The notes under the pieces were generated by a model. That model did not search any database. It worked only from the letters and a program-made list of their open reading frames with translations, and had not been told where the DNA came from. Both the position numbers and the translations under genes were made by a program. Shown piece by piece: positions 32,682 to 48,575 of a DNA stretch of 64,000 bases (position 1 is the stretch's first letter; every line of letters begins with the position of its first letter). The stretch comes from an uncultured Alphaproteobacteria bacterium (GTDB lineage Bacteria > Pseudomonadota > Alphaproteobacteria > Methylaequorales > Methylaequoraceae): positions 66,987 to 130,986 of the forward strand of contig CABZFH010000004.1 of the NCBI GenBank assembly GCA_902524895.1, written 5' to 3'.

Positions 32682-32695
32682 AATAGTATTTAGAT

Positions 32696-34282: not shown

Positions 34283-35513
34283 GGATTGGAAGAAATGGGA
34301 TTATAAGAATGAAATGAGTTTTTCATCTTCTAAAAAGAAAATAAAAGTTTTCAGTACAAAATTAAAGATTTCTATATTGATTTTTATAATTTTATTTTTT
34401 AGCTTAATTAATATAAAGATATTAGAAGTTTTAAGTTTGGCAGACGGAAAAGTAATTCCACAAGGAAGAATAAAATTTGTTCAACATTTAGAAGGTGGAA
34501 TTGTTGAGAAAATTTTAATTTCTGAAGGAGATAAAGTAAAAATGAATCAACCATTAATTACATTATCTAAGGCAAAGGCCTCCTCAGAATATGAAGAAAT
34601 AAATACAAGATTAAAATCTGTTGAGCTATCAATTTTAAGAATAAATGCTGAAAAAAAATATTTAAATGAAATTCCAAATGATAAAATTCAAAAATTTGAT
34701 TTAAACCGAGTTAAGTCTGAAAATCAATTTTTAATGAGTAGAAGAAAAAAAATCGAATCTGAAAAAGATACCATGAAAAAGAATATTTTAAATATTCAAA
34801 AGAGATATGATTTGACAAAAGAACAGACACAGATTAGCGAAGAATTATTAAAAGTAAAAGCCACTAATAGATTTAAGCATCTTGAATTATTACGAGAATT
34901 ATCTAATTTAGAGGGTCAACTTGATGAACAAAAAAACAAGTTACAGACTTTAAGTCTTAACTTTGTAGAACAACTAGAAAGTGAGATGAATGAACTTAAG
35001 AAAGAAAAGTCAGAACTCTTAAAAAGAATAACAAAATATACGGACAGTCTTGATAGAACTACATTAAAAAGTCCTGTCAACGGTGTTGTTAAGTTGATTT
35101 CTGTTAACTCTAAAGGTGCCATTGTAGCTCCGGGTGTCACTGTTGTAGAAATTGTACCTGAAAATGAAAAACTTATTATTGAGGCCCAACTACCATTGTC
35201 AGAAATTGGATTCATAAAAAATGGTTTGGATTGTATTATTAGGCTCAAATCTAGTGATGGTTCAAGATTTAAACCAATAAACGGAAAGGTTGTTTTTGTT
35301 GGTGCTGACAGAATCTCTAATCAAAACAATGATGGTTTTTACTTAGTAAAAATCGAAACCAAAGAAAATTCATTTTTAAAAGGAAATCAATCTTTTAACC
35401 TTTATTCTGGTGTGCCTGTGACAGCAGGAATAATTACTGGGAAAAGAAGTTTTGTTGATTATTTTTTTTCACCATTTAGAAAAAATATTAATTTTGCTCT
35501 TTCCGAAAGATAA
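34266..35513 (+). CDS. HlyD-family membrane fusion protein (T1SS)
   Basis: One N-terminal TM, a long coiled coil and a C-terminal barrel with SGVPVTAGIITGKRS. It overlaps the ABC gene by 17 nt. Confidence 0.8.
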   Translation: MRYMNKDWKKWDYKNEMSFSSSKKKIKVFSTKLKISILIFIILFFSLINIKILEVLSLADGKVIPQGRIKFVQHLEGGIVEKILISEGDKVKMNQPLITLSKAKASSEYEEINTRLKSVELSILRINAEKKYLNEIPNDKIQKFDLNRVKSENQFLMSRRKKIESEKDTMKKNILNIQKRYDLTKEQTQISEELLKVKATNRFKHLELLRELSNLEGQLDEQKNKLQTLSLNFVEQLESEMNELKKEKSELLKRITKYTDSLDRTTLKSPVNGVVKLISVNSKGAIVAPGVTVVEIVPENEKLIIEAQLPLSEIGFIKNGLDCIIRLKSSDGSRFKPINGKVVFVGADRISNQNNDGFYLVKIETKENSFLKGNQSFNLYSGVPVTAGIITGKRSFVDYFFSPFRKNINFALSER

Positions 35514-35816
35514 TTAAAATGTACTTTTAGTAATAATCTCTGATTTATAAATAATACCTTGGTTTTTTTTATGCAATTCAAGAAAAAAAAATAACTCATT
35601 AAAAATTTTTTCACTTTCTTCTTCAGAAACAATTAACGTCAATATTTCTGATTCTCCTGCATCACCAAATTGCTTTCTACTGAAAAGATCATTTGTTCTT
35701 CCGTTAGCAAATCCGACAGTTTTGACTGATTTCTTTTTGGAGAATTTCTCTATAACATTATGACCAAGTCCTTTCCTGATTAATCCACCAATTTCAATAA
35801 AATTATTTTTTTTCAT
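35514..35816 (-). CDS. PII-like small regulatory protein (second of a pair)
   Basis: About 100 aa with a beta-alpha-beta pattern. Its position downstream of a DUF1538 gene fits the remembered gene context. Motif evidence is weak. Confidence 0.4.
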   Translation of the reverse strand: MKKNNFIEIGGLIRKGLGHNVIEKFSKKKSVKTVGFANGRTNDLFSRKQFGDAGESEILTLIVSEEESEKIFNELFFFLELHKKNQGIIYKSEIITKSTF

Positions 35817-36168
35817 TTTCTACTCTTTTTAAAACATCTTGTGGTATATAAGTAGCTACTCTGTCTAACTTACTCATCCACATGATTCCTTTTCCAGGTG
35901 TGTCTAAATCTCCTGAGAGATACATTGATTCGAAAACTCTATTAGATTGTTCTTTTGAGACAATTATTCTAATCACCTCTTTTTGTTCATCAATTGTGAC
36001 TCCTATAAGTCCCAGCCTATCTCTAATTCCAGTACCTTTTGCATAGTTAATTGTCGCACCTTGAGCCCCAACCGCACTCGCTGCTTTTACGATTTTATCT
36101 GCATTTCCACTTTCGACTACACATGTAATTAAATAAACATCAGATAAATATGTAATTTGTCTAGCCAT
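35803..36168 (-). CDS. PII-family (GlnB-like fold) regulatory protein
   Basis: LITCVVESGNADKIVKAASAVGAQGATINYAKGTGIRDRLG...KEVIRIIV is PII-like. It overlaps both neighbours. Confidence 0.55.
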   Translation of the reverse strand: MARQITYLSDVYLITCVVESGNADKIVKAASAVGAQGATINYAKGTGIRDRLGLIGVTIDEQKEVIRIIVSKEQSNRVFESMYLSGDLDTPGKGIMWMSKLDRVATYIPQDVLKRVENEKK

Positions 36169-37885
36169 TAGTTTCTCCTTTTTGTCTTAGTTTTATGAAT
36201 ATACCCATGATCAGTACAGCTAATATAGGACAAATACTTGCCATTGACAAAATACCAAATCCCTCGGTAGCAGAAACAGCATTTCCTAATCCTAACCCCA
36301 TTGCCAATACTAATGGTACAGTGACAGGTCCAGTTGTTACTCCTGCGCTATCCCATGCAACATTCACAAATTCTTCTGTAGAAAAATATGTCAAAATAAT
36401 TGCAGTCAAATAAAGAGGTATTAATAACATTGCAAGATCAAAATTAAAAATTATCTTTCCAACGCCTAGTGCAATTCCAAAAGCTACACCACTTGCAACA
36501 CTATACATCAACATTGCTTTTCTAAACGCACCATTTGTTAGATCTTGTACCGTTGCGCCTAATGCATTTAAAGCTGGTTCAGCTAATGTTGATCCAAATC
36601 CAAGTATCCAGGCGAATATTATAACAATTGAAAGTCCTAATGACTTGTTATAAATAGGCGAGATATCACTAGAATCAATTTTCATAAATGCTGCAGGTAA
36701 AATATCACCTGCTTGACCTCCTATTGCTCCTAATCCATAGGTCAAACCCAAGTTAAATATGCACATACCAATTATTGATAATGTTAATCCATAACCAGTT
36801 ACTAAATTATTAGGTAATTTAGACTTAAGAATAATGAATAAGACAAACATTAAAAAAATTACTAGTGGAAGAATTGATTGAATTCCTGCAAGAATTTCAA
36901 TAAATGGTGTTTGATTCCATTTTGATTCTTCAAGTCCTTGAAACGTGGAATTAGAAGTAGTCAACAAAGCCGCATCAATAATTTCCTGAGGTGATGATTG
37001 AAGCGAAACAAAAATTGATAAAATTAAAACTGCTATTATAGGAAATATAGATGCTAGAGTTACAACACCAAAACCAGATAGTGATGAATCACCTTTTCCT
37101 GCAGAAGCAGCTATACCGATTCCTAAAGATAAGACAAGAGGAACAGTTACCGGACCAGTTGTAACTGCTCCGCAATCCCATGCTAAACCAAGAATTGTTC
37201 TCAAATCTGGATTATTCCATGCATATAAAGTTAAAAGAATGGCAGGTATGAGAGAAAGATATATCATTGGTTTTAACGACCACCCTCTGACAAACCTCAA
37301 AGTTCCAAGAACTGCAGCTAAACCAACTCCAGCTCCAACCATTAGAACTAGTGGTTGGGTCCAGTTATTTAAAAGCTCATACAAATATGGCGCTTTTGCT
37401 ACATCAATTCCCCCGCCAAATGCCTGTAATGCCCCAATTGCGGGTTCAGCGAAGGTGACACCAACTCCTAATATTGCAATTATTAAAAGCACAACCCCCA
37501 TAGAAGCTTTTTTTGGTAAGTTATCACCAATTATTGTGCCAAATGGCATAAGACCAACTTTGAGTCCTTCCATAAAAACTGCAAGTCCAATAATAACTGC
37601 AACTAATCCTAAACCTATAATTGTTGCTTCTTGAATCGGTTGCCTTAATATTAGTAACTGAAAAATAAATAAGTAGGCTGCTAATGGCATCACAGCTTTT
37701 ATCTGTTCAAATATTCTTGATGAAGTATATGGTATTAATAAATTTAAGGCTTTAAAAAACCCTATATTTATCTTTTCCGGTTTTAGAGCTAATTTTCCAG
37801 ATTTTTCTGGTTTTGGGGTAAGTATGTTATAACTTATTGATCTATGTCTAATCTCAGATTCATGAACAAAATCAGAATACTTCAT
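36161..37885 (-). CDS. DUF1538-family integral membrane protein (two internal repeats)
   Basis: The internal duplication is visible: AWDCGAVTTGPVTVPLVLSLGIGIA and AWDSAGVTTGPVTVPLVLAMGLGLG. More than 12 TM helices. Confidence 0.6.
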   Translation of the reverse strand: MKYSDFVHESEIRHRSISYNILTPKPEKSGKLALKPEKINIGFFKALNLLIPYTSSRIFEQIKAVMPLAAYLFIFQLLILRQPIQEATIIGLGLVAVIIGLAVFMEGLKVGLMPFGTIIGDNLPKKASMGVVLLIIAILGVGVTFAEPAIGALQAFGGGIDVAKAPYLYELLNNWTQPLVLMVGAGVGLAAVLGTLRFVRGWSLKPMIYLSLIPAILLTLYAWNNPDLRTILGLAWDCGAVTTGPVTVPLVLSLGIGIAASAGKGDSSLSGFGVVTLASIFPIIAVLILSIFVSLQSSPQEIIDAALLTTSNSTFQGLEESKWNQTPFIEILAGIQSILPLVIFLMFVLFIILKSKLPNNLVTGYGLTLSIIGMCIFNLGLTYGLGAIGGQAGDILPAAFMKIDSSDISPIYNKSLGLSIVIIFAWILGFGSTLAEPALNALGATVQDLTNGAFRKAMLMYSVASGVAFGIALGVGKIIFNFDLAMLLIPLYLTAIILTYFSTEEFVNVAWDSAGVTTGPVTVPLVLAMGLGLGNAVSATEGFGILSMASICPILAVLIMGIFIKLRQKGETNG

Positions 37886-37954: not shown

Positions 37955-38392
37955 CTATGAATAGATCATTTGTGCTAGCCTATGGTGAAGTTGTAAAGCT
38001 AATGCTCTAATGACATTTGGTTCATCCTTGACTAATTTTTTAAGATTATCACTTGAAATTGGAAGATTGTAATCTGAGTTTTTTGCTAACTCAATTGCAA
38101 ACTCTTTAATTAGTTTGTGGAGTTCAAGGCTCGAAGATAACAACAATTCATTTAAGGCAGAAGGTTTTATCTCAACAATTTCAGCAGGTGTAACAGCCTT
38201 TATACTAGCTTTTCTTTCTTCACCAAGAATAAGAGATAACTCTCCAAAAATTTCTCCCTCTGAAATTTTTCCAACCTTATCTCCATCCCTTTCAACATTG
38301 AATGATCCAGAAATAACCAGATAAGCTGCATCACCCTTGTCACCTTGTTTAAAAACAAATTGATCTGGTAAAATTTTTATTTTTGTTGTCAT
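37955..38392 (-). CDS. Stand-alone cyclic-nucleotide-binding domain protein
   Basis: CAP-effector-domain signature GEIFGELSLILGEERKASIKA. Confidence 0.8.
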   Translation of the reverse strand: MTTKIKILPDQFVFKQGDKGDAAYLVISGSFNVERDGDKVGKISEGEIFGELSLILGEERKASIKAVTPAEIVEIKPSALNELLLSSSLELHKLIKEFAIELAKNSDYNLPISSDNLKKLVKDEPNVIRALALQLHHRLAQMIYS

Positions 38393-38398
38393 TATTAA

Positions 38399-40756
38399 TC
38401 ATTTAGTAGTAGCAACAAAAACACCATCCCATATTTCAGGAGGGGGGTAGTTTTTGAAATCTATAATTCGTTTCTGAATAATACTATAATACTCTTTCAT
38501 TACTCCCTTCAATAGGTTTTCATTATTTTTTATAATTTTTAACGCTTCGTCCCAATTCTTATTAAAATAAAAATTTAAAAGATTTTCATGTTGTTCTTTA
38601 AAAAATTTAAATTCATTTTTATTTCTTAGTTCACTGTCTCCAAGAAGAGTAAATATAGAAACAGCTTCTTTTTTGCCTTTAACTGCGATTTTATCTAATT
38701 GCAAAGTAGCAAACTCGTGCTGAACTTCTGTATTGGTTTCTTCTCCGATAACTGTTTTTACTCCGTAACCTTTTGATTGTCCTTCAAGTCTTGATGCTAA
38801 ATTAACAGAGTCGCCTAATACTGAATAATCAAATCTTTGATCAGAGCCCATATTACCTACTACACATTCTCCTGTATTAATACCAATCCCAATTTTTAAT
38901 TCTAGATATTCTATTTTTGCAACTTTAGCTTCTTTTTCCCTCTGTTCATTTAATTTTTTTAGTTCTTCATGCATCTCCAAAGTTGCCGTACATGCTTGAG
39001 ATTCATGATCTTTTGAATTAAGTGGTGCATTCCAAAATGCCATTATACAGTCTCCCATGTATTTATCTATTGTTCCATTGTGAGAAATAATTTTGTCTGT
39101 CAAAGGTGTTAAAAATCTATTTATCAATTTTGTAAGTCCTTGAGGATCAGATTTAAATAATTCAGAAATTGCTGTAAACCCTCTTACATCACAAAAGAGA
39201 AATGTCATTTTTTTAGTTTCACCCCCCAATTTTAGCTTATTTGGATCTGCTGCTAATTGTTCTACGAGTGCTGGTGATAAGTATTGAGAAAAAGCACCTC
39301 GAATTTGTTTTTTTTCGTTTGCATCTCTCAAATAATTTGCAAATGTAGTTGAAAAATAAATCATAAAACTCGATAGAGCAGCAAAAGTTGGATCGAAAAG
39401 TATTTTTTTATCAATATATAAACTTAAACTTATATAAAACGCTGCTCCAACGATTATACAAAAAAAAGAAATATTTAAAATAGGACCAAATTTGAATGAC
39501 GAAAATGTAAAAATTAAACCTAAAATTACAATGAACATTGATTCATAAAAAGGCATATTTACTCCTGATTTTAAAAACGGAGCTCCAATGATTTCTACTT
39601 TCTCAGCTTTTTTTATTGCCTCATTGGCGTCTAAACCTAACTTGAGTGAATTATCGTAAATTTCTTGAGATTTTTTTTTACTTGAATAATATAAAATTGC
39701 AGAAATAATTGTATCGATTAGATTAGCGTGAATTTCAACACCAGGCATTCTTTTGTCAACTGATGTGGGTTTAATGTCTTTAAGCCCAATTGCTGAAGTG
39801 CCTAAAATTCCTAGTTTTCCTTTGAGTCTTTCAGCCCCAACTTTGCCGCTAATTATATCAGAAGCGCTTACATAATATCTAGGGTTTTCAACATTTTGTT
39901 TGTCTGAGCTACCGTAATGAACCCAGACCCTTCCTTCAGCATCAGTTGGTATTGAGGCTTTACCAATTGCTTTTGTTTGAATTATAATTTCTTCAATTCC
40001 ATTAATGCCAGTTTTGCTTGCAATACTATTTCCTTGAAATGCAACTCGAATCATTTCTAGGGCTAAAGTTGGTCTAATTTTATTATCAATATTTGAAATT
40101 ATTGGTATTCTTCGAATAATTCCGTCAGGTTCTTCTGACAAAGAGATAATACCGGCTCCAGAACTAGCTTTTTCGAATGAAGGAACATTGGCAAGAAGGC
40201 CGGGGTATTTTTTTAACCATTTTTTTTTGGGATCTTCACCCAAAATCGCTTTAACAGAGGTATCTCTAACATCATTTCTTTTTGAATCTCCAATTTCATT
40301 CATAGCTGAATGACCTAAAACTACCGGTATCGTATTCATAGCACTAACGGCTATTTCCTCATTTGAAGGAAGTTCTAAAAGTTTTTTATGTAAATCGGGG
40401 TAATTATCTTTTAGGTTTTTTGCAATAAACTCTGGTGAGGTTCTATCCTTTTCAGAAAACAAAACATCTAAGCCAATAACTAACATACCAGCTTCACCAG
40501 ATTTTTTAAAAAGTTCTGCAAGGATATTTCTTGACCAAGGCCATTGACCAATTTCTTTTAGAGATTTTTCATCAATATCTATAATAACAGAGTAAGTATT
40601 TCCATTTGTTTCTCTTGGCTCATGCCTTTGCAGTACATCAAAATATTTTAAACGAAAAATTTCAATTAATTCTGGATCCGAAATTCTAATTCCACCGAAC
40701 AAAAAAGCTGAAAGAATCGCAAATAAACTTACAAGTGATCTAAATTTTAGTTTCAT
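38399..40756 (-). CDS. CHASE2-sensor class III adenylate/guanylate cyclase
   Basis: N-terminal TM plus a large extracytoplasmic domain and a TM cluster (CHASE2 architecture). Cyclase core: FLFCDVRGFTAISE, YMGDCIMAFWNAP, GINTGECVVGNMGS, YSVLGDSVNLASRLEG. Confidence 0.85.
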   Translation of the reverse strand: MKLKFRSLVSLFAILSAFLFGGIRISDPELIEIFRLKYFDVLQRHEPRETNGNTYSVIIDIDEKSLKEIGQWPWSRNILAELFKKSGEAGMLVIGLDVLFSEKDRTSPEFIAKNLKDNYPDLHKKLLELPSNEEIAVSAMNTIPVVLGHSAMNEIGDSKRNDVRDTSVKAILGEDPKKKWLKKYPGLLANVPSFEKASSGAGIISLSEEPDGIIRRIPIISNIDNKIRPTLALEMIRVAFQGNSIASKTGINGIEEIIIQTKAIGKASIPTDAEGRVWVHYGSSDKQNVENPRYYVSASDIISGKVGAERLKGKLGILGTSAIGLKDIKPTSVDKRMPGVEIHANLIDTIISAILYYSSKKKSQEIYDNSLKLGLDANEAIKKAEKVEIIGAPFLKSGVNMPFYESMFIVILGLIFTFSSFKFGPILNISFFCIIVGAAFYISLSLYIDKKILFDPTFAALSSFMIYFSTTFANYLRDANEKKQIRGAFSQYLSPALVEQLAADPNKLKLGGETKKMTFLFCDVRGFTAISELFKSDPQGLTKLINRFLTPLTDKIISHNGTIDKYMGDCIMAFWNAPLNSKDHESQACTATLEMHEELKKLNEQREKEAKVAKIEYLELKIGIGINTGECVVGNMGSDQRFDYSVLGDSVNLASRLEGQSKGYGVKTVIGEETNTEVQHEFATLQLDKIAVKGKKEAVSIFTLLGDSELRNKNEFKFFKEQHENLLNFYFNKNWDEALKIIKNNENLLKGVMKEYYSIIQKRIIDFKNYPPPEIWDGVFVATTK

Positions 40757-40762
40757 GAAAAA

Positions 40763-42478
40763 TTATGGTTCTGCAAAACTGTTACCTAATGTTCTTACTA
40801 AAGGATAAATAAAGTAGGTGATCAATCGTCTTTTTCCAACTTTAATCTTTCCCGATACTTTCATTCCTGGCATAATATTAAATCCTGGTGGTGTATCTTT
40901 TAGTAGATTCTCTGTTATTTCTGCTCTTGCTCTGTAGTAGTTTCCTGTTTGTCCGTCAACATTTTCATTTACTGTGTCTGCGGATATATAATTTATCTTT
41001 CCTTTCAGTTCTCCGTGTTTTTGAGCCGGAAGCGCACTTAATTGAATTTTTACAGATGTATCCGGAATTAATTTACTGATGTCAGAGGGATCAACATCAA
41101 AAACAGCAAGAAGTTCAACTCCAACAGGGACTAGAGTGACTACAGCATTTCCAGGATTAATAACTGCTCCCGGATAAAGTGAATGCAGATCAAGGACCAT
41201 TCCATCTGACGGTGCTTTGACAATTACATCCGTTTGCTGTCTATTAAGTTTTTTTATGTCTTCAACTAAAGCCATCTTCTGATCTTCAAGAGTTACAAGC
41301 TCATCATTAATTCCACCAAACCATTGACTCATATATTCTTCCTTACTGGATTTAAGTTCACTTAATTTGTTTGTTGTTTTGGTGTATTCTTTTTCCAAGG
41401 AAAGCGTTTTGTTTCTTTCACCAAGTACTTGTGCTTCAGGTACTAAGTCAAGTTTAAATAGGCTTTTTTTTGATGCCTCCAGTTGTTTTTGTATCTCTAA
41501 TTGTTCTGAAATAAACCTCAAATCGTCTTCTGTAGAAGCTATTTGTTTTTTTAAAGAAGCAGATTTAGCTAAAAATTGTTCTTTTTTATCTTTAAATATA
41601 GTGTTTTGTCTGCTATCGATTGGGTTTCCAACATTTTTATTATTTCTTAAATTTGACTGTTTCTTTAGCCTGTCTATTTTGGCCTCTATAACATTAAGTT
41701 GATAGTTTAATTTTCTTTTATCGGCCTTTTGAAGAATATCATCAAATATTACAAGAGATTCGCCTTCAGTAATCTTTTGTCCTTTTTTAACTAACACTTC
41801 TCTTACTACTGACTTATAATTTGATTGTACTTCAATGTTCGGTACAATTGTGGTAATTTTACCGGATGCTGACACTGATGTATCAATTACAGAAATCGAG
41901 CTCCACAGAATTAGGAAGAGAATTAAAAAACCTAAGGAAAAAATAGTATATTTCACTGGTTGGGGAACCTTTCTGCCTTTAATTCTTTCAATATCGGAAT
42001 CATATTCCTCTAATAATTCTCTCATTAAATCATTTTTTTTTCTTTCCTCTATTTGATCAGCAGTTAAATTATTTGAAATTTGTTCTTTATCTTCTTCTTC
42101 ATTTGAGGATTCAAAAGCATCAACTGTGAGTTTTTCATTGGCATTTCTTGCATAACCTGCAAGTTGCTGCATCATATTAAATGCTGTTTGAGGCGAGTTT
42201 TTTAAAAAAACTAAAAGCGCATTTTGATCTATCTCTTTTACTATAGTTTCTTTGGTAGCTCTTGCCATAGCACTTCTAGGTTGCCTATCAATTAGTGCCA
42301 TTTCACCAAACAAGGCACCTTTTTTTAACTTTGCAAGAGTTATATATTCGTCACCATTAAATTTGCAAATCTCAATTTCTCCACTAGAAACTTGATATGC
42401 AAAATCTCCAACTTCCCCCTCACGAAAAAGAACATCACCTGCTGCCAAACTTCTTAATTTAGGCTTATTTTCAGTCAT
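40763..42478 (-). CDS. HlyD-family membrane fusion protein with an N-terminal cNMP-binding domain
   Basis: Residues 1-~115 read GDVLFREGEVGDFAYQV...GALFGEMALIDRQPRSAMARA (CAP effector domain). One TM helix, a coiled coil and a HlyD barrel (MPGMKVSGKIKVGKRR) follow. Confidence 0.8.
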   Translation of the reverse strand: MTENKPKLRSLAAGDVLFREGEVGDFAYQVSSGEIEICKFNGDEYITLAKLKKGALFGEMALIDRQPRSAMARATKETIVKEIDQNALLVFLKNSPQTAFNMMQQLAGYARNANEKLTVDAFESSNEEEDKEQISNNLTADQIEERKKNDLMRELLEEYDSDIERIKGRKVPQPVKYTIFSLGFLILFLILWSSISVIDTSVSASGKITTIVPNIEVQSNYKSVVREVLVKKGQKITEGESLVIFDDILQKADKRKLNYQLNVIEAKIDRLKKQSNLRNNKNVGNPIDSRQNTIFKDKKEQFLAKSASLKKQIASTEDDLRFISEQLEIQKQLEASKKSLFKLDLVPEAQVLGERNKTLSLEKEYTKTTNKLSELKSSKEEYMSQWFGGINDELVTLEDQKMALVEDIKKLNRQQTDVIVKAPSDGMVLDLHSLYPGAVINPGNAVVTLVPVGVELLAVFDVDPSDISKLIPDTSVKIQLSALPAQKHGELKGKINYISADTVNENVDGQTGNYYRARAEITENLLKDTPPGFNIMPGMKVSGKIKVGKRRLITYFIYPLVRTLGNSFAEP

Positions 42479-42481
42479 AAA

Positions 42482-44641
42482 TTAAATCGCTTTTTTAATC
42501 TTTTGTTGATGAACACCTAACATATCGATCTGCTTATAATACGTATCTCTAAAAAAGCCACTTTGATTTAGTAATTCTTCAAAACCTCCTTCTTGCGAAA
42601 TGGTAGATTTTTCAAGTACAAAAATTTTATTACAAAGTCGAAGGTGCCATAATCTACTAGAGACAATTATAACTGTTCTTCCAACTGCGATATCCTCAAG
42701 TGCGTCATATAATTTTATTTCACTATCTACATCAAAACCACTGATAGCATCGTCAAATATTAGAATTCTTGGATTTCTGATAAGTGCTCTAGCTATTTGA
42801 AGTTTTTGTCTCATTCCTGTAGATAAATTTGCAGCATTTTCCTCTAAAACTGTTTCATATCCTTCAACGAAGTTCTCAATATCTTCATGAGCAGAAACCT
42901 TCTTTGCAGCCCAAATTATTCTATCCATAGAAGAATTTGGCATTGGTCTAGCAATATTCTCTCTTATTGTGCCTGGAAAAAAATAACTACTATCATCGAC
43001 AAGAGAAACTTGAGAACGTAGATGACTTAAATCTAAGAGTCTCAAATCACTGTTGTCGTATGAAATCATTCCAGACTTCGGTCTATACAAACCAACTAAT
43101 AATTTTGTAAGAGTACTCTTACCACACCCACTTTTGCCAGTTAATCCAATAACTTGTCTGGGATTAATATTTAAATTTATATTCTCAAGTATCTTGGTTT
43201 CATCATCATATCCAAAATCTAGATTTTTAACCGAAATTTGTCCCATTAGTTGAGGCTTTTGTCCTTTTGAAGTATTATCAGATGGGGCATCTATTATGCT
43301 TGATAGAATTTTAACTGAGTTGAGTAGTTTTCCTATTTCAGTTTTTAAAGTTACTAATGAAATAATCGGTGTAGAAACTCTAGATGCAAGCATATTAAAT
43401 CCTACAAGTATTCCAGCTGATAATCCACCAGCAAAAACTAAATGAACACCAACAAAAATAACCATTGCTGTCATTAGTTGATTAATAGTTGATGTCACAT
43501 TCTGAAGAATTGCATTTTTATGCTGAAGTTTTTCAGAAGAAATAATATAGTTTGCTTCAATATCTCTCCAAGCATCCTTAATACTTGGCTCGAGAGCTAA
43601 TCCTTTTACATTTTCTATTCCATGTACTGCAATTGAAACAAATTCTTGTCTTTTTGACTCGTCTTTACTCATTTCTATTGAAGCATCCCTTGATTTTTTT
43701 GAAAAATACATTGAGCTCAATGCTCCAGCAATGCTAAAAACCAAAACAACTGAAAATAAAACAGGACTATAAAAAAAAAGAATTGGAACAAAGACAACTA
43801 ATGCGATTGAATCTAATGCAGTTGAAAAAATTTTTTGTGTTAACAAATTTTTAATTAAACTAATTTGAGAAGTAAACTTTGCAAACATGTCCGATTCTTT
43901 GTTGTATCTTTGCATTGGTAGAGATAAAAGTTTATCAAACGCTTTTATAGACAACTTTGCTTCAACTTTTTGAGATAAGAAATCTAGTAAGTATAATTTT
44001 AGATATCCTAAAACCCCGTTGCACAGATATGCTACAACTACTCCGGAAGTAATAACATACAAAGTTGAATAAGCTTCATAATTTACAACTTTATCTAAGA
44101 CTAACATCATAAAAACTGCAGGAATCACTGCAAAAATATTTAAAATTAACGCCACCACAAGTAGTTGAACGATTACAGAACGATTTCTCAAACTTTCACC
44201 TATTAACCAAGATATTGAAAATTCGCTTGTTTCTTCAAAAAGTTTTAATTTAGGCTTAAGTAATATTAAATTTCCTAACCAAGCTTTTTTAAGTTCTTCA
44301 ATTGAAATTTGTTGAGGTTTTGGGTTTGGATTACCAGCATCTAAACATAACAAAAATTTTTCATCATTTTTTTTCAGCATTCTTAATCCAATAATATAAC
44401 GTCCATTCTTAAGCTTTAATATTTGTTGTTTTTTTTTTAACAATTCAGCTAATTCTTCAGCTTTGACTTGAACAGATTTGGCTTTTAGATCAAATGCATT
44501 TGCTAACTGACACATTTCTTCAGAGGTTAACTCTCTATTTTCAATTTGAAATTTTTCAGGTATATCATTGGGACCTACATGAATACCATATTGTCTTGAT
44601 ATTAAAATAATTGATTTTTGCGATCCTCTCAAAACAGTCAT
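42482..44641 (-). CDS. HlyB-type T1SS ABC transporter with an N-terminal C39-like domain lacking the catalytic Cys; non-canonical NBD motifs
   Basis: The C39-like N-terminus (~130 aa) has no Cys at the expected N-terminal position. Six TM helices. Walker A GKSGCGKST, Q-loop position LVDDSS (Asp for Gln), signature LSTGM, Walker B LIFDDA (Asp for Glu), H-loop position IVSSRL (Ser for His). Confidence 0.85.
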   Translation of the reverse strand: MTVLRGSQKSIILISRQYGIHVGPNDIPEKFQIENRELTSEEMCQLANAFDLKAKSVQVKAEELAELLKKKQQILKLKNGRYIIGLRMLKKNDEKFLLCLDAGNPNPKPQQISIEELKKAWLGNLILLKPKLKLFEETSEFSISWLIGESLRNRSVIVQLLVVALILNIFAVIPAVFMMLVLDKVVNYEAYSTLYVITSGVVVAYLCNGVLGYLKLYLLDFLSQKVEAKLSIKAFDKLLSLPMQRYNKESDMFAKFTSQISLIKNLLTQKIFSTALDSIALVVFVPILFFYSPVLFSVVLVFSIAGALSSMYFSKKSRDASIEMSKDESKRQEFVSIAVHGIENVKGLALEPSIKDAWRDIEANYIISSEKLQHKNAILQNVTSTINQLMTAMVIFVGVHLVFAGGLSAGILVGFNMLASRVSTPIISLVTLKTEIGKLLNSVKILSSIIDAPSDNTSKGQKPQLMGQISVKNLDFGYDDETKILENINLNINPRQVIGLTGKSGCGKSTLTKLLVGLYRPKSGMISYDNSDLRLLDLSHLRSQVSLVDDSSYFFPGTIRENIARPMPNSSMDRIIWAAKKVSAHEDIENFVEGYETVLEENAANLSTGMRQKLQIARALIRNPRILIFDDAISGFDVDSEIKLYDALEDIAVGRTVIIVSSRLWHLRLCNKIFVLEKSTISQEGGFEELLNQSGFFRDTYYKQIDMLGVHQQKIKKAI

Positions 44642-44670
44642 AATAAACGTATTATATAAGTTATTGGGTA

Positions 44671-44707
44671 AAAAAAAACCCTCTAAAAATTTTAGAGGGT
44701 TTTTTTT
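44671..44707 (-). terminator. Strong symmetric hairpin flanked by A and T runs (bidirectional rho-independent terminator or attenuator) between the substrate gene and the ABC gene
   Basis: AAAAAAAA-CCCTCTAAAA-A-TTTTAGAGGG-TTTTTTTT. Confidence 0.7.
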
Positions 44708-44724
44708 ATCAATGTAGTTATTTA

Positions 44725-45735
44725 TTAAGCCATTCCTGACGTATCGTCATCTGTAGAAGGATCAGGGATAGCAGCATCACCAGCAGGGACGTCAGGTTGG
44801 TCTACTGAAGCGGGGTCATAACCGGGCTCAGGCATTGCTTCTGCAGAACTTTGATCCATGTAAGAGGATGCTTCATCCATTTCTGGGGGATAATCCACAG
44901 GTGCTGGTCCATCATCAAGGCCTCCGTCGTCTGGACCACTTGCTGCCATCATCGGATCTGTTGGCGGCATATCTGGACCCATTTCTGGTGGTGGTGTAGC
45001 AGGACCAAATTCAGGTCCCCCTGGCTCACCAACACTAGCAGGATCTCCACCTGGCGGCGGCATGTCCCCTGGTCCTGCCATATCACCTGGAGGATAGTCC
45101 ATCGGTGCTGGTCCGTCATCGTAACCACCTTCACCTGGACCTTCAGGCGGTTGTGGCGCCATTCCAGTAGCTGGGTCAATAGCTGGACCTGCCATATCAC
45201 CTGGAGGCATATCTGCTGGGCCTGCCATATCACCTGGACCTTCAGGCGGTTGTGGCGCCATTCCAGTATCTGGATCAATAGCTGGACCTGCCATATCACC
45301 TGGAGGCATATCTGCTGGGCCTGCCATATCACCTGGAGGAGGCATATCACCTTCCGTACCTGGAGGTGGCATATCCGCTGGTCCCATATCAGTCATACTT
45401 GATGGACCATCCATCCCAGTTGGGGGGCCATCCATTGGACCATATTCTGCTTCAAAAGCACTATCTACAGAGGTTCCAGCTGCATCAAAAGCTTCCATTG
45501 GATCCATGCTAGGGTTAGCTTCCATAGCAGAAGTAAAACCTTCAGTGGCTGAAGTAACCATTGTATCAACCATACCAGAATCAGCTCCCATATCTGTCAT
45601 TACGGCACCTGCGGCTTCAGTAGCTGCACTTAATGCTTCCGCAGGAGATCCACCTGAATCAAGTACTGCAGTGTAAGCATCCTGGGCTGCAGATCCAGCT
45701 GAATCTGCCATATTATCATATTCATATGGTGGCAT
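44725..45735 (-). CDS. Extremely acidic Pro/Gly/Asp/Met/Ala-rich repetitive protein with no Lys, Arg, His, Cys or Trp; putative T1SS cargo
   Basis: 336-aa ORF with an AAGGAAA RBS. Third codon positions remain A/T-biased like the host. It sits between tolC and the ABC/MFP genes. There is no signal peptide. Confidence 0.7.
   Translation of the reverse strand: MPPYEYDNMADSAGSAAQDAYTAVLDSGGSPAEALSAATEAAGAVMTDMGADSGMVDTMVTSATEGFTSAMEANPSMDPMEAFDAAGTSVDSAFEAEYGPMDGPPTGMDGPSSMTDMGPADMPPPGTEGDMPPPGDMAGPADMPPGDMAGPAIDPDTGMAPQPPEGPGDMAGPADMPPGDMAGPAIDPATGMAPQPPEGPGEGGYDDGPAPMDYPPGDMAGPGDMPPPGGDPASVGEPGGPEFGPATPPPEMGPDMPPTDPMMAASGPDDGGLDDGPAPVDYPPEMDEASSYMDQSSAEAMPEPGYDPASVDQPDVPAGDAAIPDPSTDDDTSGMA
45132..45329 (-). 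repeat. Two tandem copies of a 99-bp (33-aa) unit, 97/99 identical
   Basis: Unit 45132-45230 versus 45231-45329 differs at two positions only. It encodes GPGDMAGPADMPPGDMAGPAIDP(D/A)TGMAPQPPE. Confidence 0.9.
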
Positions 45736-45830
45736 ATTAATTTCCTTATTTTAAAAGTTTATTTGCTATTACATTTTGCTTTTACATTATTTGATGATAA
45801 AAAACTTTTCAATTTGGTTCAAGTTAAAAA

Positions 45831-47162
45831 CTAAATTTTGATTTTTAAATAATTAAAAGTTAACAAGCCACAAGCTTGCAGTAAATCAAAAGAAGAATTA
45901 ATTAATTGAAATTTTGCATTAACTAAATTTGATTCTGCATCGGTTAATGCTTGTTGAGCACTTAATATATCAAATGTAGTTCTTGTTCCAACGCCAGCTT
46001 CTTGTTCTACTCCTTCAAATGCTACTAGATTTGATTCAACAGAGGCTTCAAGGGCTTTAATGCTAGACTTTAAACTTTCAATTTTTTTCCAGGCACTTTT
46101 GACTTCATGTTGAAGATTAATTTTTTTACTTTCAATTTTTCTTTGTGAGATAATTGCAGTATTCTTTGATTTTTCAAGATTAAAAAAATTATGCCCTTTA
46201 TTAAATAAAGGCATGCTTAGGTTTGCTGTTACCTCAAAAGAATCTTTTCTTTCAATTGTTCTTGAACTTTCCATAGTTTTTCCGTAAGAGCCACTAATTG
46301 AGAACTCAGGAAAAAAGTTTAAAGTGTTTGATCGAATTTGAATTTTAGAGTTTATAAGTTCAAACCTTAACTTATTAAGATCAGGATTATTTAAAAAAGC
46401 CAATTCTAGAGATTCATTTAAAGATGTTGGAAGATTTGGTATTTTTCCAAATTTCAACCAATCTATCGGATTATTTGATGTAATCTTTTCTTTGTTCTTT
46501 TTTTTCCAGTTTATATCTGGTTCTCTTCCAACAACGGCTACGTATTCAGAAATAGCAATTTCTAAATTATTTTCTGCCTCTATTCTCTCAGATATTGCTT
46601 TTTCAAGGCTAGCTTTAGCAAGAAAAACATCTGTTTTCGTTACGCTTTTAAATTCAAATCTCTGTTCTGTGGCAACTAATTTTGTATTTAAGGTAGTTTC
46701 ATTTTTGATAGCTACGTCCAGTAAAAACCTTTCTTTTAAAACCGTGTAAAATGCTTTTGACGCTCTTAAAAGAACATCTTGAATTATTGATTTATCAGCA
46801 AATCTTTGAGCTTTTAAATTGTTTTTTGCAGATTCAAAAGATAAAAATTTGCTAGATCCAAGAGGTTGACTTATGTCTATATCGATAGTGGATGGGTTAA
46901 GTGCGTCATAACCGTAGTTAGATGTATCAGGAAATGATTCAGTGATTTTTCTACCCTGAGACATCGATAATTCAACTGATGGTAAAAAATCTGTTTTTGA
47001 GATAACAACTTCTTTTATCTTATTTTTTAAATCTAATTTACTTTTGTTTATGTCGGGATAGTACTTATAACTATCTATTAGAGTATCTTCAAGGGTTTCA
47101 GAAGATAAATTTGTGTCGAGAGTTATTAATAAAAAAAGTAATGAAAAATAATAAACTATCAT
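45831..47162 (-). CDS. tolC: TolC-family outer-membrane channel
   Basis: Signal peptide and two OEP repeats. The C-terminal GTRTTFDILSAQQAL...LL motif is typical of TolC. Confidence 0.85.
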   Translation of the reverse strand: MIVYYFSLLFLLITLDTNLSSETLEDTLIDSYKYYPDINKSKLDLKNKIKEVVISKTDFLPSVELSMSQGRKITESFPDTSNYGYDALNPSTIDIDISQPLGSSKFLSFESAKNNLKAQRFADKSIIQDVLLRASKAFYTVLKERFLLDVAIKNETTLNTKLVATEQRFEFKSVTKTDVFLAKASLEKAISERIEAENNLEIAISEYVAVVGREPDINWKKKNKEKITSNNPIDWLKFGKIPNLPTSLNESLELAFLNNPDLNKLRFELINSKIQIRSNTLNFFPEFSISGSYGKTMESSRTIERKDSFEVTANLSMPLFNKGHNFFNLEKSKNTAIISQRKIESKKINLQHEVKSAWKKIESLKSSIKALEASVESNLVAFEGVEQEAGVGTRTTFDILSAQQALTDAESNLVNAKFQLINSSFDLLQACGLLTFNYLKIKI

Positions 47163-47270: not shown

Positions 47271-47347
<77 letters not shown>

Positions 47348-47409: not shown

Positions 47410-48027
47410 ATGTTTTTTTATCGATTTATAAGAATTGATACTTGTATTTTTTTTGGGTTGTTATTTTTCCCCTTTTTATTGTTTTGTAATTATGATAAAG
47501 CAATTGAATTATATAAAAATAAGGAATATCCAGAATCTATATTAGAATTTAAAAGGTTTATAGATTCTGAAATAGAACATGAGAAAAAAAAAGATGCTAT
47601 GTACAATCTCGCCATTATTTATGATTTTGGCTTAGGAATAAAAGAAAACAAAGATAAGGCCGTTAAATGGTATAAAAAAGCATCAAATTTAAATCATAAA
47701 ATTGCTCAATTCAATCTAGCATGGATGTTTTACAATGGTGAGAAGCTTGAGAAAAATAACTTTGAGGCTTTCAATTATTATCTAAGATCTGCTAATCAGG
47801 GTTATAATAAAGCACAATTTAATTTAGCTAATTTATATTTTGCAGGCGAGGGGACAATAAAAGATTATGTGGAATCATATAAATGGTTTAAAATTTCTTC
47901 TTTAAATGGAATCAAGGAAAGTGAAAATTTTTTATCTACATTAATCAGAAAACTTCATCCCGAAGAATTAACCTTAGCAAATCAGAAAGTTGACGACTGG
48001 ATAAAAAGCTACAAACAAAATCAATAA
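47410..48027 (+). CDS. Sel1-repeat (TPR-like) protein
   Basis: Repeated KAVKWYKKASNLNHKIAQFNLAWMFYNGEK / AFNYYLRSANQGYNKAQFNLANLYFAGEG units, plus an N-terminal hydrophobic segment. Confidence 0.75.
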   Translation: MFFYRFIRIDTCIFFGLLFFPFLLFCNYDKAIELYKNKEYPESILEFKRFIDSEIEHEKKKDAMYNLAIIYDFGLGIKENKDKAVKWYKKASNLNHKIAQFNLAWMFYNGEKLEKNNFEAFNYYLRSANQGYNKAQFNLANLYFAGEGTIKDYVESYKWFKISSLNGIKESENFLSTLIRKLHPEELTLANQKVDDWIKSYKQNQ

Positions 48028-48498: not shown

Positions 48499-48575
48499 TG
48501 GCGACCCCGGTACGATTCGAACGTACGACCTACTGCTTAGAAGGCAGTTGCTCTATCCAGCTGAGCTACGGGGCC
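48499..48575 (-). tRNA. tRNA-Arg (anticodon UCU), CCA encoded
   Basis: The reverse complement is GGCCCCGTAGCTCAGCTGGATAGAGCAACTGCCTTCTAAGCAGTAGGTCGTACGTTCGAATCGTACCGGGGTCGCCA. It folds as a cloverleaf with anticodon loop CTTCTAA. Confidence 0.95.

Follow-up and report, generated by a model that had tools for sequence, protein, structure and literature searches.

Gene content and organization of the locus

The window analysed here, 64,000 nucleotides from the genome of a streamlined marine alphaproteobacterium (genome GC ∼28%), carries on its minus strand a string of six genes. These encode, in order, a TolC-family outer-membrane channel, an acidic protein, an HlyB-type ABC exporter, a membrane fusion protein (MFP) bearing a cyclic nucleotide-binding (CNB) domain, a CHASE2 cyclase and a stand-alone CNB protein, with a hairpin between the acidic protein and ABC genes (Table 1). 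The six ORFs, their order and their coordinates are those of the original prediction, and all of the domains it had claimed were recovered by Pfam and NCBIfam HMM searches and AF2 modelling. The scores of the ABC, MFP and TolC proteins all lie below the curated NCBIfam subfamily cut-offs. TolC has a signal-like hydrophobic segment at its N-terminus (aa 1–19, by hydropathy) and is syntenic in four related loci (L001, L003, L007 and L010).

Table 1. Features of the locus
Feature	Coordinates	Strand	Evidence
TolC-family outer-membrane channel, 443 aa	45831..47162	-	Pfam OEP 2.7e-45; TIGR01844 6.8e-60
Acidic protein, 336 aa, probable cargo	44725..45735	-	Composition; no Pfam/NCBIfam match; AF2
Tandem duplication within cargo gene	45131..45337	-	99-nt/33-aa unit × 2.1, 98% identical; Tandem Repeats Finder score 400
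Intrinsic-terminator-like hairpin, A8-CCCTCTAAAA/TTTTAGAGGG-T8	44671..44707	-	Folding vs shuffles
HlyB-type ABC exporter, 719 aa	42482..44641	-	Pfam Peptidase_C39 4.9e-9, ABC_membrane, ABC_tran; TIGR01846 2e-150
Membrane fusion protein, 571 aa	40763..42478	-	Pfam cNMP_binding 2.2e-18 (aa 9-94), HlyD_3/HlyD_D23; NCBIfam; AF2
CNB domain of MFP, aa 7-119	42122..42460	-	PF00027 66 bits vs cut-off 27.5
Juxtamembrane charged helix (aa 141-167, DQIEERKKNDLMRELLEEYDSDIERIK) and TM helix (aa 173-197)	41888..42058	-	AF2; hydropathy
CHASE2 class III cyclase (predicted adenylyl cyclase), 785 aa	38399..40756	-	Pfam CHASE2 1.8e-46, Guanylate_cyc 4.6e-22
Stand-alone CNB protein, 145 aa	37955..38392	-	PF00027 2.8e-17, sole domain found
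DUF1538/P-II downstream module	35514..37885	-	Co-conserved; Pfam
DUF1538 membrane protein	36161-37885	-	Pfam DUF1538 5.7e-106
P-II-like protein	35803-36168	-	Pfam P-II 1.7e-6
100-aa paralogue of P-II-like protein	35514-35816	-	Paralogous at E = 8e-8

The ABC/MFP, MFP/cyclase and cyclase/CNB gaps measure 3, 6 and 6 nt, exactly as predicted, but same-strand genes in the window are separated by a median of 3.5 nt; such spacing is the norm for this genome and provides no argument for the co-transcription that had been deduced from it.

A CNB domain fused to the MFP

In the MFP, a cytoplasmic CNB domain is joined by a disordered, acidic linker and a charged helix to a single TM helix, beyond which lies an HlyD periplasmic body. 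Its AF2 model (mean pLDDT 81) gave Foldseek matches to EmrA, MacA, HlyD (5c21/5c22) and LipC (5nen), and has helices at aa 141–167 and 173–195, with the hydropathy peak at 179–197. Both hydropathy and the model place the CNB domain on the cytoplasmic side of the single TM helix. The best PDB matches of this domain are the CNB domains of PKG, PKA-R and CRP, at 1e-18 to 1e-12. The motif GALFGEMALIDRQPRSAMARA, which the original prediction had quoted, is indeed there as the phosphate-binding cassette (PBC); the cassette FGEMALIDRQPRSAMARA spans nt 42257–42310, coordinates confirmed by translation. On proper alignment, G58, E59 and R68 are invariant across the fusion family (21–40% identity; alignments A1 and A5) and FGEMALID is nearly so. 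These alignments support the predicted complete, canonical CNB domain at the N-terminus of the MFP and indicate that its binding site is under selection.

The identity of the ligand cannot be assumed, because the N-terminal cNMP-type domain of HetC, essential in vivo, was not stabilized by cAMP and bound GTP, GDP and ppGpp (Kd 59 μM; PMC10986499). The MFP domain could likewise be a receptor for a ligand other than cAMP or cGMP (ppGpp or another nucleotide), or a ligand-free assembly or oligomerization domain, with the cyclase not its signal source; most fusion clades have no cyclase in the flanks examined. We regard this as unlikely, given the textbook PBC of the window MFP (FGEMALIDxxPRSA), in which the ribose-contacting Glu and phosphate-contacting Arg are invariant family-wide, the similarity of the domain to genuine cNMP-binding domains, and the cyclase and intact-PBC CNB proteins encoded directly downstream in all eight close-clade loci.

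The charged helix of the MFP matches in position the short cytoplasmic N-terminus of HlyD, whose charged motif touches HlyB and is indispensable for recruiting TolC (bioRxiv 10.1101/2025.05.27.656419). More generally, a type I secretion system (T1SS) cannot recognize its substrate or assemble without the cytoplasmic domains of its adaptor (PMC8277102). The CNB domain is placed on the part of the adaptor that, in HlyD-type systems, contacts the ABC and is needed for substrate-triggered recruitment of TolC.

The ABC exporter, the cyclase and the stand-alone CNB protein

The N-terminal C39-like domain of the ABC (aa ∼1–140) aligns best with the HlyB CLD (7sgr, 3zua). As predicted, it is Cys-less, with no Cys among the first 42 residues, and a Tyr occupies the position of the catalytic His (NGRYII aligned to DGRHFI of HlyB); judged by these residues, the domain is inactive.

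The cyclase, whose CHASE2 and class III assignments hold, comprises a TM segment, a periplasmic CHASE2 domain (nt ∼39557–40693), three TM helices, a cytoplasmic catalytic domain (nt 38660–39217) and a C-terminal tail ending in PPPEIWDGVF; hydropathy marks segments at aa 3–21 and 401–447. Its best PDB matches are adenylate cyclases. The metal-binding Asp residues lie in FCDVRG and YMGDC, and the Asn and Arg in VNLASRLE; the enzyme is catalytically complete. The specificity residues are the Lys in TIDKYMGD, aligned to Glu of the guanylyl cyclase Cya2 (2w01), and the Ser in DYSVLGD, aligned to Thr of CyaB and CyaC. Because the catalytic set is full and carries Lys/Ser at the specificity positions, the product is predicted to be cAMP, where the original prediction had left cAMP or cGMP.

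The stand-alone protein is a CNB protein, as proposed, with no DNA-binding domain found by Pfam. Relatives carry two such genes, and the PBC residues G46, E47, G50, E51, R60 and A62 are invariant over both paralogues.

A basic-residue-free acidic protein is the probable cargo

The acidic protein contains 0 K, 0 R and 0 H, as had been noted, and also lacks C and W. At the window median K+R fraction, the probability of 0 K/R in 336 aa is ∼8e-24. Its gene has a GC content of 52%, against ∼28% for the genome. A four-helix domain at the N-terminus (aa 3–98, nt 45442–45729; pLDDT 93–96) gives way to a disordered stretch of ∼240 aa made up of Pro/Gly/Asp/Met/Ala repeats (pLDDT ∼50). Searches found no Pfam or NCBIfam match and, with the AF2 model, no structural neighbours at E<1. 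The tandem duplication within the gene is recent, and both repeat unit and copy number vary between orthologues.

Counterparts in related loci were scored by composition. K/R-free acidic, Pro/Gly/Met-rich proteins adjoin the ABC gene in 17 of the 21 fusion loci that could be assessed, covering six clades, whilst no ORF among 2,567 from 810 kb of control loci matched this composition (clade-level p = 3e-6). Such a protein stays beside the ABC of the CNB-MFP system in the different clades, even where MFP identity has fallen to 27%. The protein encoded directly upstream of the ABC is probably the cargo.

It might instead have an accessory role in the cytoplasm or periplasm, or act as a polyanionic mimic, with the T1SS exporting another protein, e.g. 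an RTX/FecR protein from a neighbouring locus. The window protein has no RTX repeats by Pfam, though a CLD like that of the ABC usually goes with RTX cargo, and it ends in ...DTSGMA, without the acidic residue followed by hydrophobic residues found at most counterpart C-termini (DDIV, DDVV, DTDVV, DVDVV, VDPIV); the gene for an RTX protein of 977 aa lies at a distance of 12 kb. That RTX protein has its own ABC and MFP adjacent, however, and the persistence of the K/R-free protein beside the ABC, its absence from the control loci and the T1SS-like C-termini of its orthologues make a non-cargo role improbable. A search for a hydrophobic segment in the acidic protein found none, and hence no Sec signal; the long disordered tail would suit unfolded export.

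The predicted hairpin downstream of this gene has an MFE of −20 kcal/mol (z = −6.5), with 0 of 200 shuffles equally stable, and an equivalent hairpin lies at the same position in two other loci (L001 and L003). By analogy with hlyCABD, a terminator hairpin after the cargo gene would give a high cargo-to-machine expression ratio.

Conservation of the fusion and its neighbours

PF00027 and the adaptor barrel occur together in 120 of 120 of the close clusters listed, and at least 34 more distant cluster representatives (50% identity level) match over their full length at 25–40% identity. Members come from marine ‘Rickettsiales’/SAG clades, Magnetococcales, Rhodospirillales, Magnetovibrio, Nisaea, Terasakiella and a Paracoccaceae MAG. 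By these alignments the CNB-MFP fusions form a conserved family of Alphaproteobacteria. As guessed originally, its members already sit in databases as uncharacterized annotations (‘HlyD family type I secretion periplasmic adaptor subunit’, ‘cyclic nucleotide-binding domain-containing protein’).

The predicted gene linkage held in close relatives, where the whole cluster is syntenic in 8/8 loci (MFP identity 70–79%), with the cyclase and further CNB proteins immediately downstream of the MFP. It did not extend to the wider family: a cyclase is nearby in 3/11 clades compared with 8/53 controls (15%; p = 0.38, not significant), and most of the distant loci have none within ∼10 kb. Thus, the cyclase linkage is clade-specific and no property of the whole fusion family. 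Near distant loci there are cyclases of different architecture, namely a CHASE2-AC (L089), a PAS-cyclase (L018) and a short cyclase (L086).

The DUF1538/P-II triad downstream of the window gene string recurs beside CNB-MFP systems in L013, L018 and L086; it was found in 3/11 fusion clades against 0/53 controls (p = 0.004). This module and the K/R-free cargo family, both overlooked in the original prediction, are the neighbours most specifically associated with the fusion.

Since in L018 the cyclase abuts this module (directly upstream of DUF1538-PII-PII') and lies 6 kb from the T1SS, the cyclase may primarily serve the DUF1538/P-II module. The cyclase and stand-alone CNB protein could then belong to that module or to a general cAMP regulon, their adjacency to the T1SS being the gene packing typical of this genome, and the MFP would sample the global cAMP pool. 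The DUF1538 linkage is more specific than the cyclase linkage, and pairs of a CHASE2 adenylyl cyclase and a small CNB protein occur without any T1SS in Hyphomicrobiales. Some P-II-like proteins, such as SbtB, bind adenine nucleotides including cAMP. In L086, on the other hand, the cyclase is directly upstream of the ABC, and the joint occurrence of T1SS and DUF1538 modules in three separate clades suggests joint function rather than accidental packing. We give this explanation somewhat less credence than that of a different ligand; even so, it leaves the MFP as a cNMP receptor, and secretion would respond to cAMP.

Comparison with known systems

The HlyB-HlyD-TolC system of Escherichia coli (group 2 T1SS) likewise has three components, an ABC with a catalytically dead N-terminal C39-like domain, and an MFP whose N-terminus is cytoplasmic and which has a single TM helix and a long α-hairpin body. 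In the hly operon, as in the window, the cargo gene is upstream and a terminator hairpin precedes the transporter genes. The window MFP differs in that its HlyD-like cytoplasmic segment is preceded by an extra CNB domain of ∼120 aa, the cargo differs from haemolysin in lacking RTX repeats and K/R/H and in being mostly disordered Pro/Gly/Asp/Met repeats, and the gene string adds a cyclase and a CNB protein.

Sinorhizobium CyaD1, CyaD2 and CyaK combine CHASE2 with a class III adenylyl cyclase, but their output is transcriptional, through the CRP-like, HTH-containing Clr. The CNB receptors of the window lack a DNA-binding domain, and one is a subunit of the secretion machine. In Pseudomonas fluorescens LapD/LapG, c-di-GMP controls the LapA T1SS adhesin post-translationally via an inner-membrane receptor; this receptor is no T1SS subunit, and it controls outer-membrane retention or cleavage rather than the export machine.

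In cassettes of the TIGR03896 ‘bacteriocin-type transport-associated protein’ (cyc_nuc_ocin), cNMP proteins are encoded with NHLP-type ABC/HlyD genes; loci L020–L026 and L074 have ABC-ABC-HlyD and then a small cNMP protein. In these cassettes, unlike the MFP fusion, the cNMP protein is a polypeptide of its own. The window cNMP domains score 30–32 bits against TIGR03896 (cut-off 161), and K/R-free cargo was found in 0/361 ORFs of these cassettes.

Second-messenger gating of a T1SS by way of the MFP had been taken to be experimentally uncharacterized. This stands, our literature search having found no paper on CNB-MFPs or on a T1SS under cNMP control via this subunit, but a related idea has an experimental precedent. 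The closest characterized one is HetC of Nostoc PCC 7120, in which a cNMP-type domain is fused to a peptidase-containing ABC exporter required in vivo, and for which a nucleotide second messenger has been proposed as export regulator (PMC10986499). As in the window, the cNMP-type domain is physically part of the export system. In HetC it is on the ABC rather than the MFP, with no MFP gene nearby, the C39 domain is catalytically active, no cyclase is linked and the tested ligand is ppGpp.

A proposed model for cAMP-gated secretion

Taken as a single explanation, we consider it reasonably probable that TolC, the HlyB-type ABC with its inactive C39-like domain and the HlyD-type MFP form a dedicated T1SS, which in this clade would be docked to a two-gene signalling module, the CHASE2 adenylyl cyclase and the small CNB protein. 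We infer both that cAMP is the ligand and that it gates secretion at all, in either direction. An extracytoplasmic cue at the periplasmic CHASE2 domain would alter cAMP synthesis, and cAMP would be bound by the CNB domains of the MFP, of which there may be about six per inner-membrane complex, after HlyD. Movement of the CNB C-helix could then travel along the linker and the charged helix next to the membrane as far as the interface of ABC and MFP, permitting or blocking cargo engagement, ATPase activity or TolC recruitment. Export would in this way be switched at the post-translational level and need no new transcription. The stand-alone CNB protein or proteins may buffer cAMP or act on the transporter in trans.

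The combination of a CNB domain on a T1SS adaptor with a cyclase and a K/R-free acidic protein appears to be undescribed so far, and suggests secretion that is switched directly by a second messenger.

A type I secretion apparatus of the HlyBD-TolC kind

The six minus-strand open reading frames of the original prediction, from tolC to a small gene for a cyclic-nucleotide-binding (CNB) domain, were recovered at identical coordinates, and the domains it had assigned to the TolC protein, the ABC exporter, the membrane fusion protein (MFP), the cyclase and the 145-aa protein were all found by Pfam. Against NCBIfam, the ABC, MFP and outer-membrane factor were nearest to the HlyB, HlyD and TolC type I secretion subfamilies, each below the curated cut-off: 502 bits for the ABC against TIGR01846 (HlyB; E = 2e-150, cut-off 725 bits), 207.9 against 208.65 for the MFP (TIGR01843) and 203 against 225 for TolC (TIGR01844). 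Because the TIGR01846 score falls short, the ABC is HlyB-like rather than a curated HlyB subfamily member. Its N-terminus matches Peptidase_C39 (Pfam, 4.9e-9), with the PF03412 match beginning at profile position 20. There is no Cys before residue 43, Tyr stands in place of the catalytic His, and the best PDB match and alignment is the C39-like domain (CLD) of HlyB. Group 2 (RTX) type I secretion systems (T1SSs) are marked by a C39-like domain without the catalytic Cys, and the window ABC carries such a domain. For the MFP body, the AF2 model and its Foldseek matches to HlyD, LipC, EmrA and MacA agree with the HlyD type.

Positions and characteristics of features in the window and in comparison loci (L numbers; coordinates are those of the locus named)
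Feature	Locus	Position (strand)	Characteristics
TolC-family outer-membrane factor	Window	45831-47162 (-)	OEP (PF02321) 154.9 bits, 2.7e-45
Acidic K/R-free protein (putative cargo)	Window	44725-45735 (-)	
ABC exporter with type I exporter TMD and NBD	Window	42482-44641 (-)	ABC_membrane (PF00664) 117.6 bits, ABC_tran (PF00005) 107 bits, both above cut-offs
HlyD-type MFP with N-terminal CNB domain	Window	40763-42478 (-)	N-terminal TM and periplasmic hairpin/lipoyl/barrel body; HlyD_3 (PF13437) and HlyD_D23 (PF16576), above cut-offs
CHASE2 cyclase	Window	38399-40756 (-)	C-terminus at 38399-38450
Stand-alone CNB protein	Window	37955-38392 (-)	145 aa
DUF1538/P-II triad	Window	35514-37885 (-)	
DUF1538/P-II triad	L013	3855-6283	
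DUF1538/P-II triad	L018	1928-4316	
DUF1538/P-II triad	L086	8985-11377	
Second T1SS	Window	29748-35513 (+)	Convergent
Sel1-repeat protein	Window	47410-48027 (+)	205 aa
tRNA gene	Window	47271-47344 (+)	Directly upstream of tolC
tRNA gene	Window	48502-48575 (-)	
tRNA gene	Window	11034-11106 (+)	
Tandem CNB genes	L001	14120-15021	
Tandem CNB genes	L003	14113-15010	
Tandem CNB genes	L007	9219-10123	
Tandem CNB genes	L010	14091-14995	
Cassette bordered by transposases or integrase	L088	11693-21578	
Cassette bordered by transposases or integrase	L084	12007-12906	
Cassette bordered by transposases or integrase	L090	6559-7710	
cNMP_binding-GGDEF protein and neighbours	L089	10237-13510	Beside a distant CNB-MFP system
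Acidic family member	L086	11653-14736	1027 aa; 243 Met (24%), 25 His, 1 K, 2 R
Acidic family member	Terasakiella sp. A23		412 aa; 1 K, 0 R; ~35 PPPEGDM repeats; ends DDTDVV
Acidic family members	Magnetovibrio and Rhodospirillaceae		301-329 aa; 0 K/R; 36-43 Met

The MFP carries a conserved cyclic-nucleotide-binding domain

No PF00027 match was found in the ABC (Pfam); the cyclic-nucleotide (cNMP) domain sits on the MFP, where cNMP_binding matches at aa 9-94 (Pfam, 2.2e-18). The two CNB domains of the window score 66.4 and 62.9 bits against PF00027 (cut-off 27.5). PDB sequence matches of the MFP domain are genuine cNMP-binding domains of PKG, PKA-R and CRP. The domain has both the beta-sandwich and the phosphate-binding cassette (PBC) with Gly-Glu and Arg-(Ser/Thr/Ala)-Ala that define the CNB fold; the cassette reads FGEMALIDRQPRSA, and G58, E59 and R68 are invariant across the fusion family.

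The AlphaFold model of the MFP (pLDDT 81) has a CNB domain at aa 7-119, made up of an eight-strand beta-sandwich, the PBC helix and the alpha-B/C helices, followed by a disordered acidic linker (117-142), a charged helix (141-167), a single TM helix (173-195) and the periplasmic body. This topology, together with hydropathy, places the sensor in the cytoplasm, directly N-terminal to the segment equivalent to the short cytoplasmic domain of HlyD. According to published work, both substrate recognition and the assembly of the complex require this HlyD domain (PMC8277102), and its charged motif contacts HlyB and is needed for TolC recruitment (bioRxiv 10.1101/2025.05.27.656419).

PF00027 and the adaptor barrel were combined in 120/120 close homologues among the matches listed (at least 72% identity), and an exhaustive search of 1.84 billion cluster representatives gave at least 34 further clusters whose alignment with the MFP covers the full length, the CNB domain as well, at 25-40% identity. 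Since hundreds of independent contigs carry the fusion, an artefact of gene calling or assembly was rejected. In a 16-member alignment of distant clusters, the PBC is the most conserved segment of the MFP (consensus FGEMALIDxxPRSASARA). The CNB-MFP fusion is a family with a conserved putative binding site. In several distant lineages, transposases or an integrase border the cargo-ABC-CNB/MFP cassette, which hints at horizontal mobility of this three-gene core.

Conceptually, the nearest precedent is HetC of Nostoc, a peptidase-ABC exporter with a fused cNMP-type domain that is essential in vivo and binds ppGpp, not cAMP (PMC10986499). HetC bears this domain on the ABC, its peptidase is active and it has no linked cyclase, whereas in the window system the domain is on the MFP and the C39-like domain has neither Cys nor His; judged by its sequence, the system is not a cNMP-PCAT exporter of the HetC type. 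The predicted ligand of the MFP domain is cAMP or cGMP, with HetC as a precedent that the fold can bind other nucleotides. NCBIfam TIGR03896 (cyc_nuc_ocin) describes separate cNMP proteins in bacteriocin-type export cassettes, and those cassettes are without a K/R-free cargo. The window CNB domains, each a single CNB, reach 32.1 and 29.6 bits against the 161-bit cut-off of this family, whose architecture has two CNB domains. Cyclic nucleotides are not mentioned in the Haft 2010 NHLP paper. Literature searches on cNMP/HlyD, SAR11/T1SS/cyclase, CHASE2/T1SS and Met-rich secreted T1SS proteins returned nothing relevant, and none turned up a paper on CNB-MFP fusions or on T1SS control by cAMP, which at their incomplete coverage is absence of evidence only.

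The cyclase and the stand-alone CNB protein

The cyclase matches CHASE2 (PF05226; 159 bits, 1.8e-46) and Guanylate_cyc (4.6e-22) in Pfam. Its hydrophobic segments (aa 3-21 and 401-447) give, by hydropathy, the usual CHASE2 order of a TM helix, periplasmic CHASE2 domain, three TM helices and cytoplasmic cyclase, and the predicted protein therefore has the extracytoplasmic domain between TM helices that is characteristic of CHASE2 sensors. The best PDB matches of the catalytic domain are adenylate cyclases. Alignment to 3r5g, 6fht, 2w01 and 1wc1 located the metal Asp residues in FCDVRG and YMGDC and the transition-state Asn/Arg in VNLASRLE. The specificity positions hold Lys (TIDKYMGD), which is Glu in the guanylyl cyclase Cya2, and Ser (DYSVLGD), which is Thr in CyaB/CyaC. 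This is the residue set of a class III adenylyl cyclase, and the product should be cAMP. After the catalytic domain, the window cyclase shares with those near the CNB-MFP loci L001, L089 and L018 a C-terminal extension ending in PPxxWDGV(F/Y); the cyclases that carry it differ in their sensor domain, which is either CHASE2 or PAS.

In the 145-aa protein, PF00027 was the only domain found (Pfam, cNMP_binding 2.8e-17). It has no helix-turn-helix DNA-binding domain, and its match to the CRP model NF008732 spans CRP positions 33-129 only; it does not have the make-up of a CRP/FNR transcription factor. Most close relatives have two such genes in tandem after the cyclase, encoding ~146 and 142-154 aa and ~37% identical to each other, and the Gly-Glu and Arg are invariant across both paralogues. 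In the window, L004 and L005 only the first is present, and a short gap comes after it (69 nt in the window). The neighbours of a cNMP_binding-GGDEF protein (323 aa) in L089 are a CHASE2 cyclase, FecR and an M50 peptidase, and this may be a relay from cAMP to c-di-GMP.

Gene linkage across the fusion family

In the close clade (70-79% MFP identity), the order TolC, acidic protein, ABC, CNB-MFP, CHASE2 cyclase is kept in 8/8 loci and continues in all of them with one or two CNB genes, DUF1538, a P-II-like gene and its paralogue, and then the convergent second T1SS. Among the distant fusions listed by the genome scan, which covered at most 80 loci, the ABC and CNB-MFP pair is constant and a cyclase occurs in the flanks of only two further clades: in one as a CHASE2 adenylyl cyclase (CHASE2-AC) 3 kb off in L089, in the other as a PAS-AC in L018 and, just upstream of the ABC in L086, as a short cyclase that may be degenerate. 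Compared with 53 control loci anchored on unrelated cNMP-binding genes, cyclase linkage was enriched per locus (11/25 versus 8/53, p = 0.01) and not per clade (3/11 versus 8/53, p = 0.38). The linkage to a cyclase that was originally proposed is real locally, in the close clade, and as a general feature of the fusion family it was rejected on the clade-level test.

In four Hyphomicrobiales/Methyloceanibacter loci (L035, L044, L062 and L071) that have no T1SS in the vicinity, a small stand-alone CNB protein is encoded ~2.7-3.5 kb from a CHASE2-AC very similar to that of the window (catalytic domain E ~1e-73, CHASE2 E ~1e-52), which suggests that CHASE2-AC and CNB form a free-standing signalling pair. 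The window cluster is best read as docked modules: [cargo-ABC-CNB/MFP], [CHASE2-AC-CNB] and [DUF1538-PII-PII'].

The junctions of 3, 6 and 6 nt at ABC/MFP, MFP/cyclase and cyclase/CNB are as first described, but they were rejected as evidence for the co-transcription that had been argued from them, since same-strand gaps in the window have a median of 3.5 nt and 65% of gaps do not exceed 10 nt. A promoter scan gave 47 sites against 49.6 expected. The hairpin noted after the acidic gene, missed by a terminator scanner, was confirmed by direct folding (-20 kcal/mol, z = -6.5). An Rfam scan found nothing but tRNAs, with no riboswitch in the locus. Divergent from tolC is a Sel1-repeat gene, an arrangement kept in L001 and L003.

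The DUF1538/P-II triad is a second specific partner of CNB-MFP systems: DUF1538, a P-II-like protein and its 100-aa paralogue adjoin them in three clades, against 0/53 controls (p = 0.004). In Halomonas, DUF1538 proteins are reported to form a two-component Na+(Li+,K+)/H+ antiporter (PMC5484666). The P-II-like protein gave only marginal matches against the PDB, with no hint of a ligand. The second T1SS comprises an RTX and FecR-domain protein of 977 aa, an ABC of 528 aa that lacks a CLD and a plain HlyD of 415 aa. Its stop codon directly adjoins that of the 100-aa P-II-like gene with zero intergenic bases, and the arrangement is kept in L001, L003, L004 and L011. Because no second tolC was found near it, the one TolC may serve both T1SSs.

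A K/R-free acidic protein as the putative cargo

K, R, H, C and W are all absent from the window acidic protein, whose gene is 52% GC against ~28% for the genome. At the window median K+R fraction of 14.6%, 336 residues would contain zero K/R with a probability of ~8e-24. Met makes up 10% (at most 3.4% elsewhere in the window), and there are 0.021 side-chain N atoms per residue, ~17-fold less than the window median of ~0.37. Among the loci listed, the neighbour of the ABC is a K/R-free acidic protein rich in Pro/Gly/Asp/Met/Ala in 17/21 flank-retaining fusion loci, spanning six clades and reaching down to 27% MFP identity; the slot in L089 holds an ordinary large acidic protein (5.8% K+R). Open reading frames of at least 120 aa with K+R of at most 1% numbered 0/2,567 in 810 kb of control loci and 0/361 in seven cassettes with separate cNMP proteins. 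The protein is thus a specific partner of the CNB-MFP fusion (clade-level p = 3e-6), and we infer that it is the cognate cargo of this T1SS.

Such a cargo is non-RTX, which is unusual for a CLD-bearing ABC: PF00353 (GGxGxD nonapeptides) matched neither the acidic protein nor its orthologues, and RTX was found only in the neighbouring 977-aa protein. Hydropathy gave no hydrophobic signal in the window protein. Most orthologues end in an acidic residue followed by hydrophobics (DDIV, DDVV, DTDVV, DVDVV, VDPIV), which resembles the motif at the very C-terminus of T1SS substrates of the protease/lipase type; the window protein, unlike them, ends in DTSGMA. Its model has a four-helix N-terminal domain (pLDDT 93-96) followed by ~240 disordered residues. 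Foldseek returned no structural neighbour of this model at E<1, and a homology search with the helical domain only short unnamed fragments. The family, which is undescribed, has no Pfam domain and no informative name. The window gene also carries a 98%-identical 99-nt tandem duplication.

The 1027-aa L086 member is built of repeats such as MPPDAMGGMSPGHMEAM and has two copies of the conserved helical motif of the family (...FSAFQDGLANGMSPADAFEA...). These repeats are similar to the Met/His motifs found in proteins that bind Cu(I)/Ag(I) (CopA/CopB repeats, SilE/PcoE). Because the family lacks K and R it yields no tryptic peptides, and standard shotgun proteomics and metaproteomics would be blind to these proteins even if they are abundant.

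Discussion

The best-supported reading of the cluster is a cAMP-responsive T1SS. CHASE2 would sense an extracytoplasmic cue and the cyclase would set the cAMP level. cAMP would bind the CNB domains on the MFP, and the linker and charged helix would pass movement of the C-helix on to the ABC/MFP interface, where it would control, in either direction, cargo engagement or TolC recruitment. The stand-alone CNB proteins may buffer cAMP or act in trans. The machine itself would work like HlyBD-TolC, from which it differs in the non-RTX cargo and in scoring below the curated subfamily cut-offs. From the original interpretation, the receptor as part of the machine and the local linkage to a cyclase are retained, but not a general cyclase linkage or the argument for an operon from short gaps.

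A far wider reading, which we consider improbable, is that abundant streamlined marine Alphaproteobacteria release K/R-free, Met/Asp/Pro-rich disordered proteins, a class not recognised before, through a cAMP-gated T1SS on an extracytoplasmic cue, as extracellular metal ligands. The Met/His/Asp repeats would then act as a 'sponge' for Cu(I), and the accompanying ion flux would fall to the DUF1538/P-II module. Because they have no tryptic sites, the proteins would have escaped all trypsin-based marine metaproteomics, and they might make up a share of the strong organic metal ligands in seawater, a pool that has long gone unidentified.

The usual view of T1SSs is that they are constitutively competent and regulated transcriptionally or by substrate availability. 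A second-messenger receptor in the adaptor, at the site linking cargo binding to the recruitment of TolC, would switch a one-step secretion system directly, rapidly and post-translationally, and cAMP offers a natural experimental handle on the poorly understood cytoplasmic domain of MFPs. The finding also adds a putative cargo family with up to 24% Met, a four-helix head and a long disordered tail, which would be invisible to tryptic proteomics. The system is open to experiment in a cultured carrier, Terasakiella sp. A23 (GCA_033100395.1), which has the cargo-ABC-CNB/MFP genes at ~129-134 kb of JAWLVJ010000008.1. Since the ~9–12 kb cluster is kept in ~1.5 Mb genomes that have shed most regulation, a strong selective value is implied.
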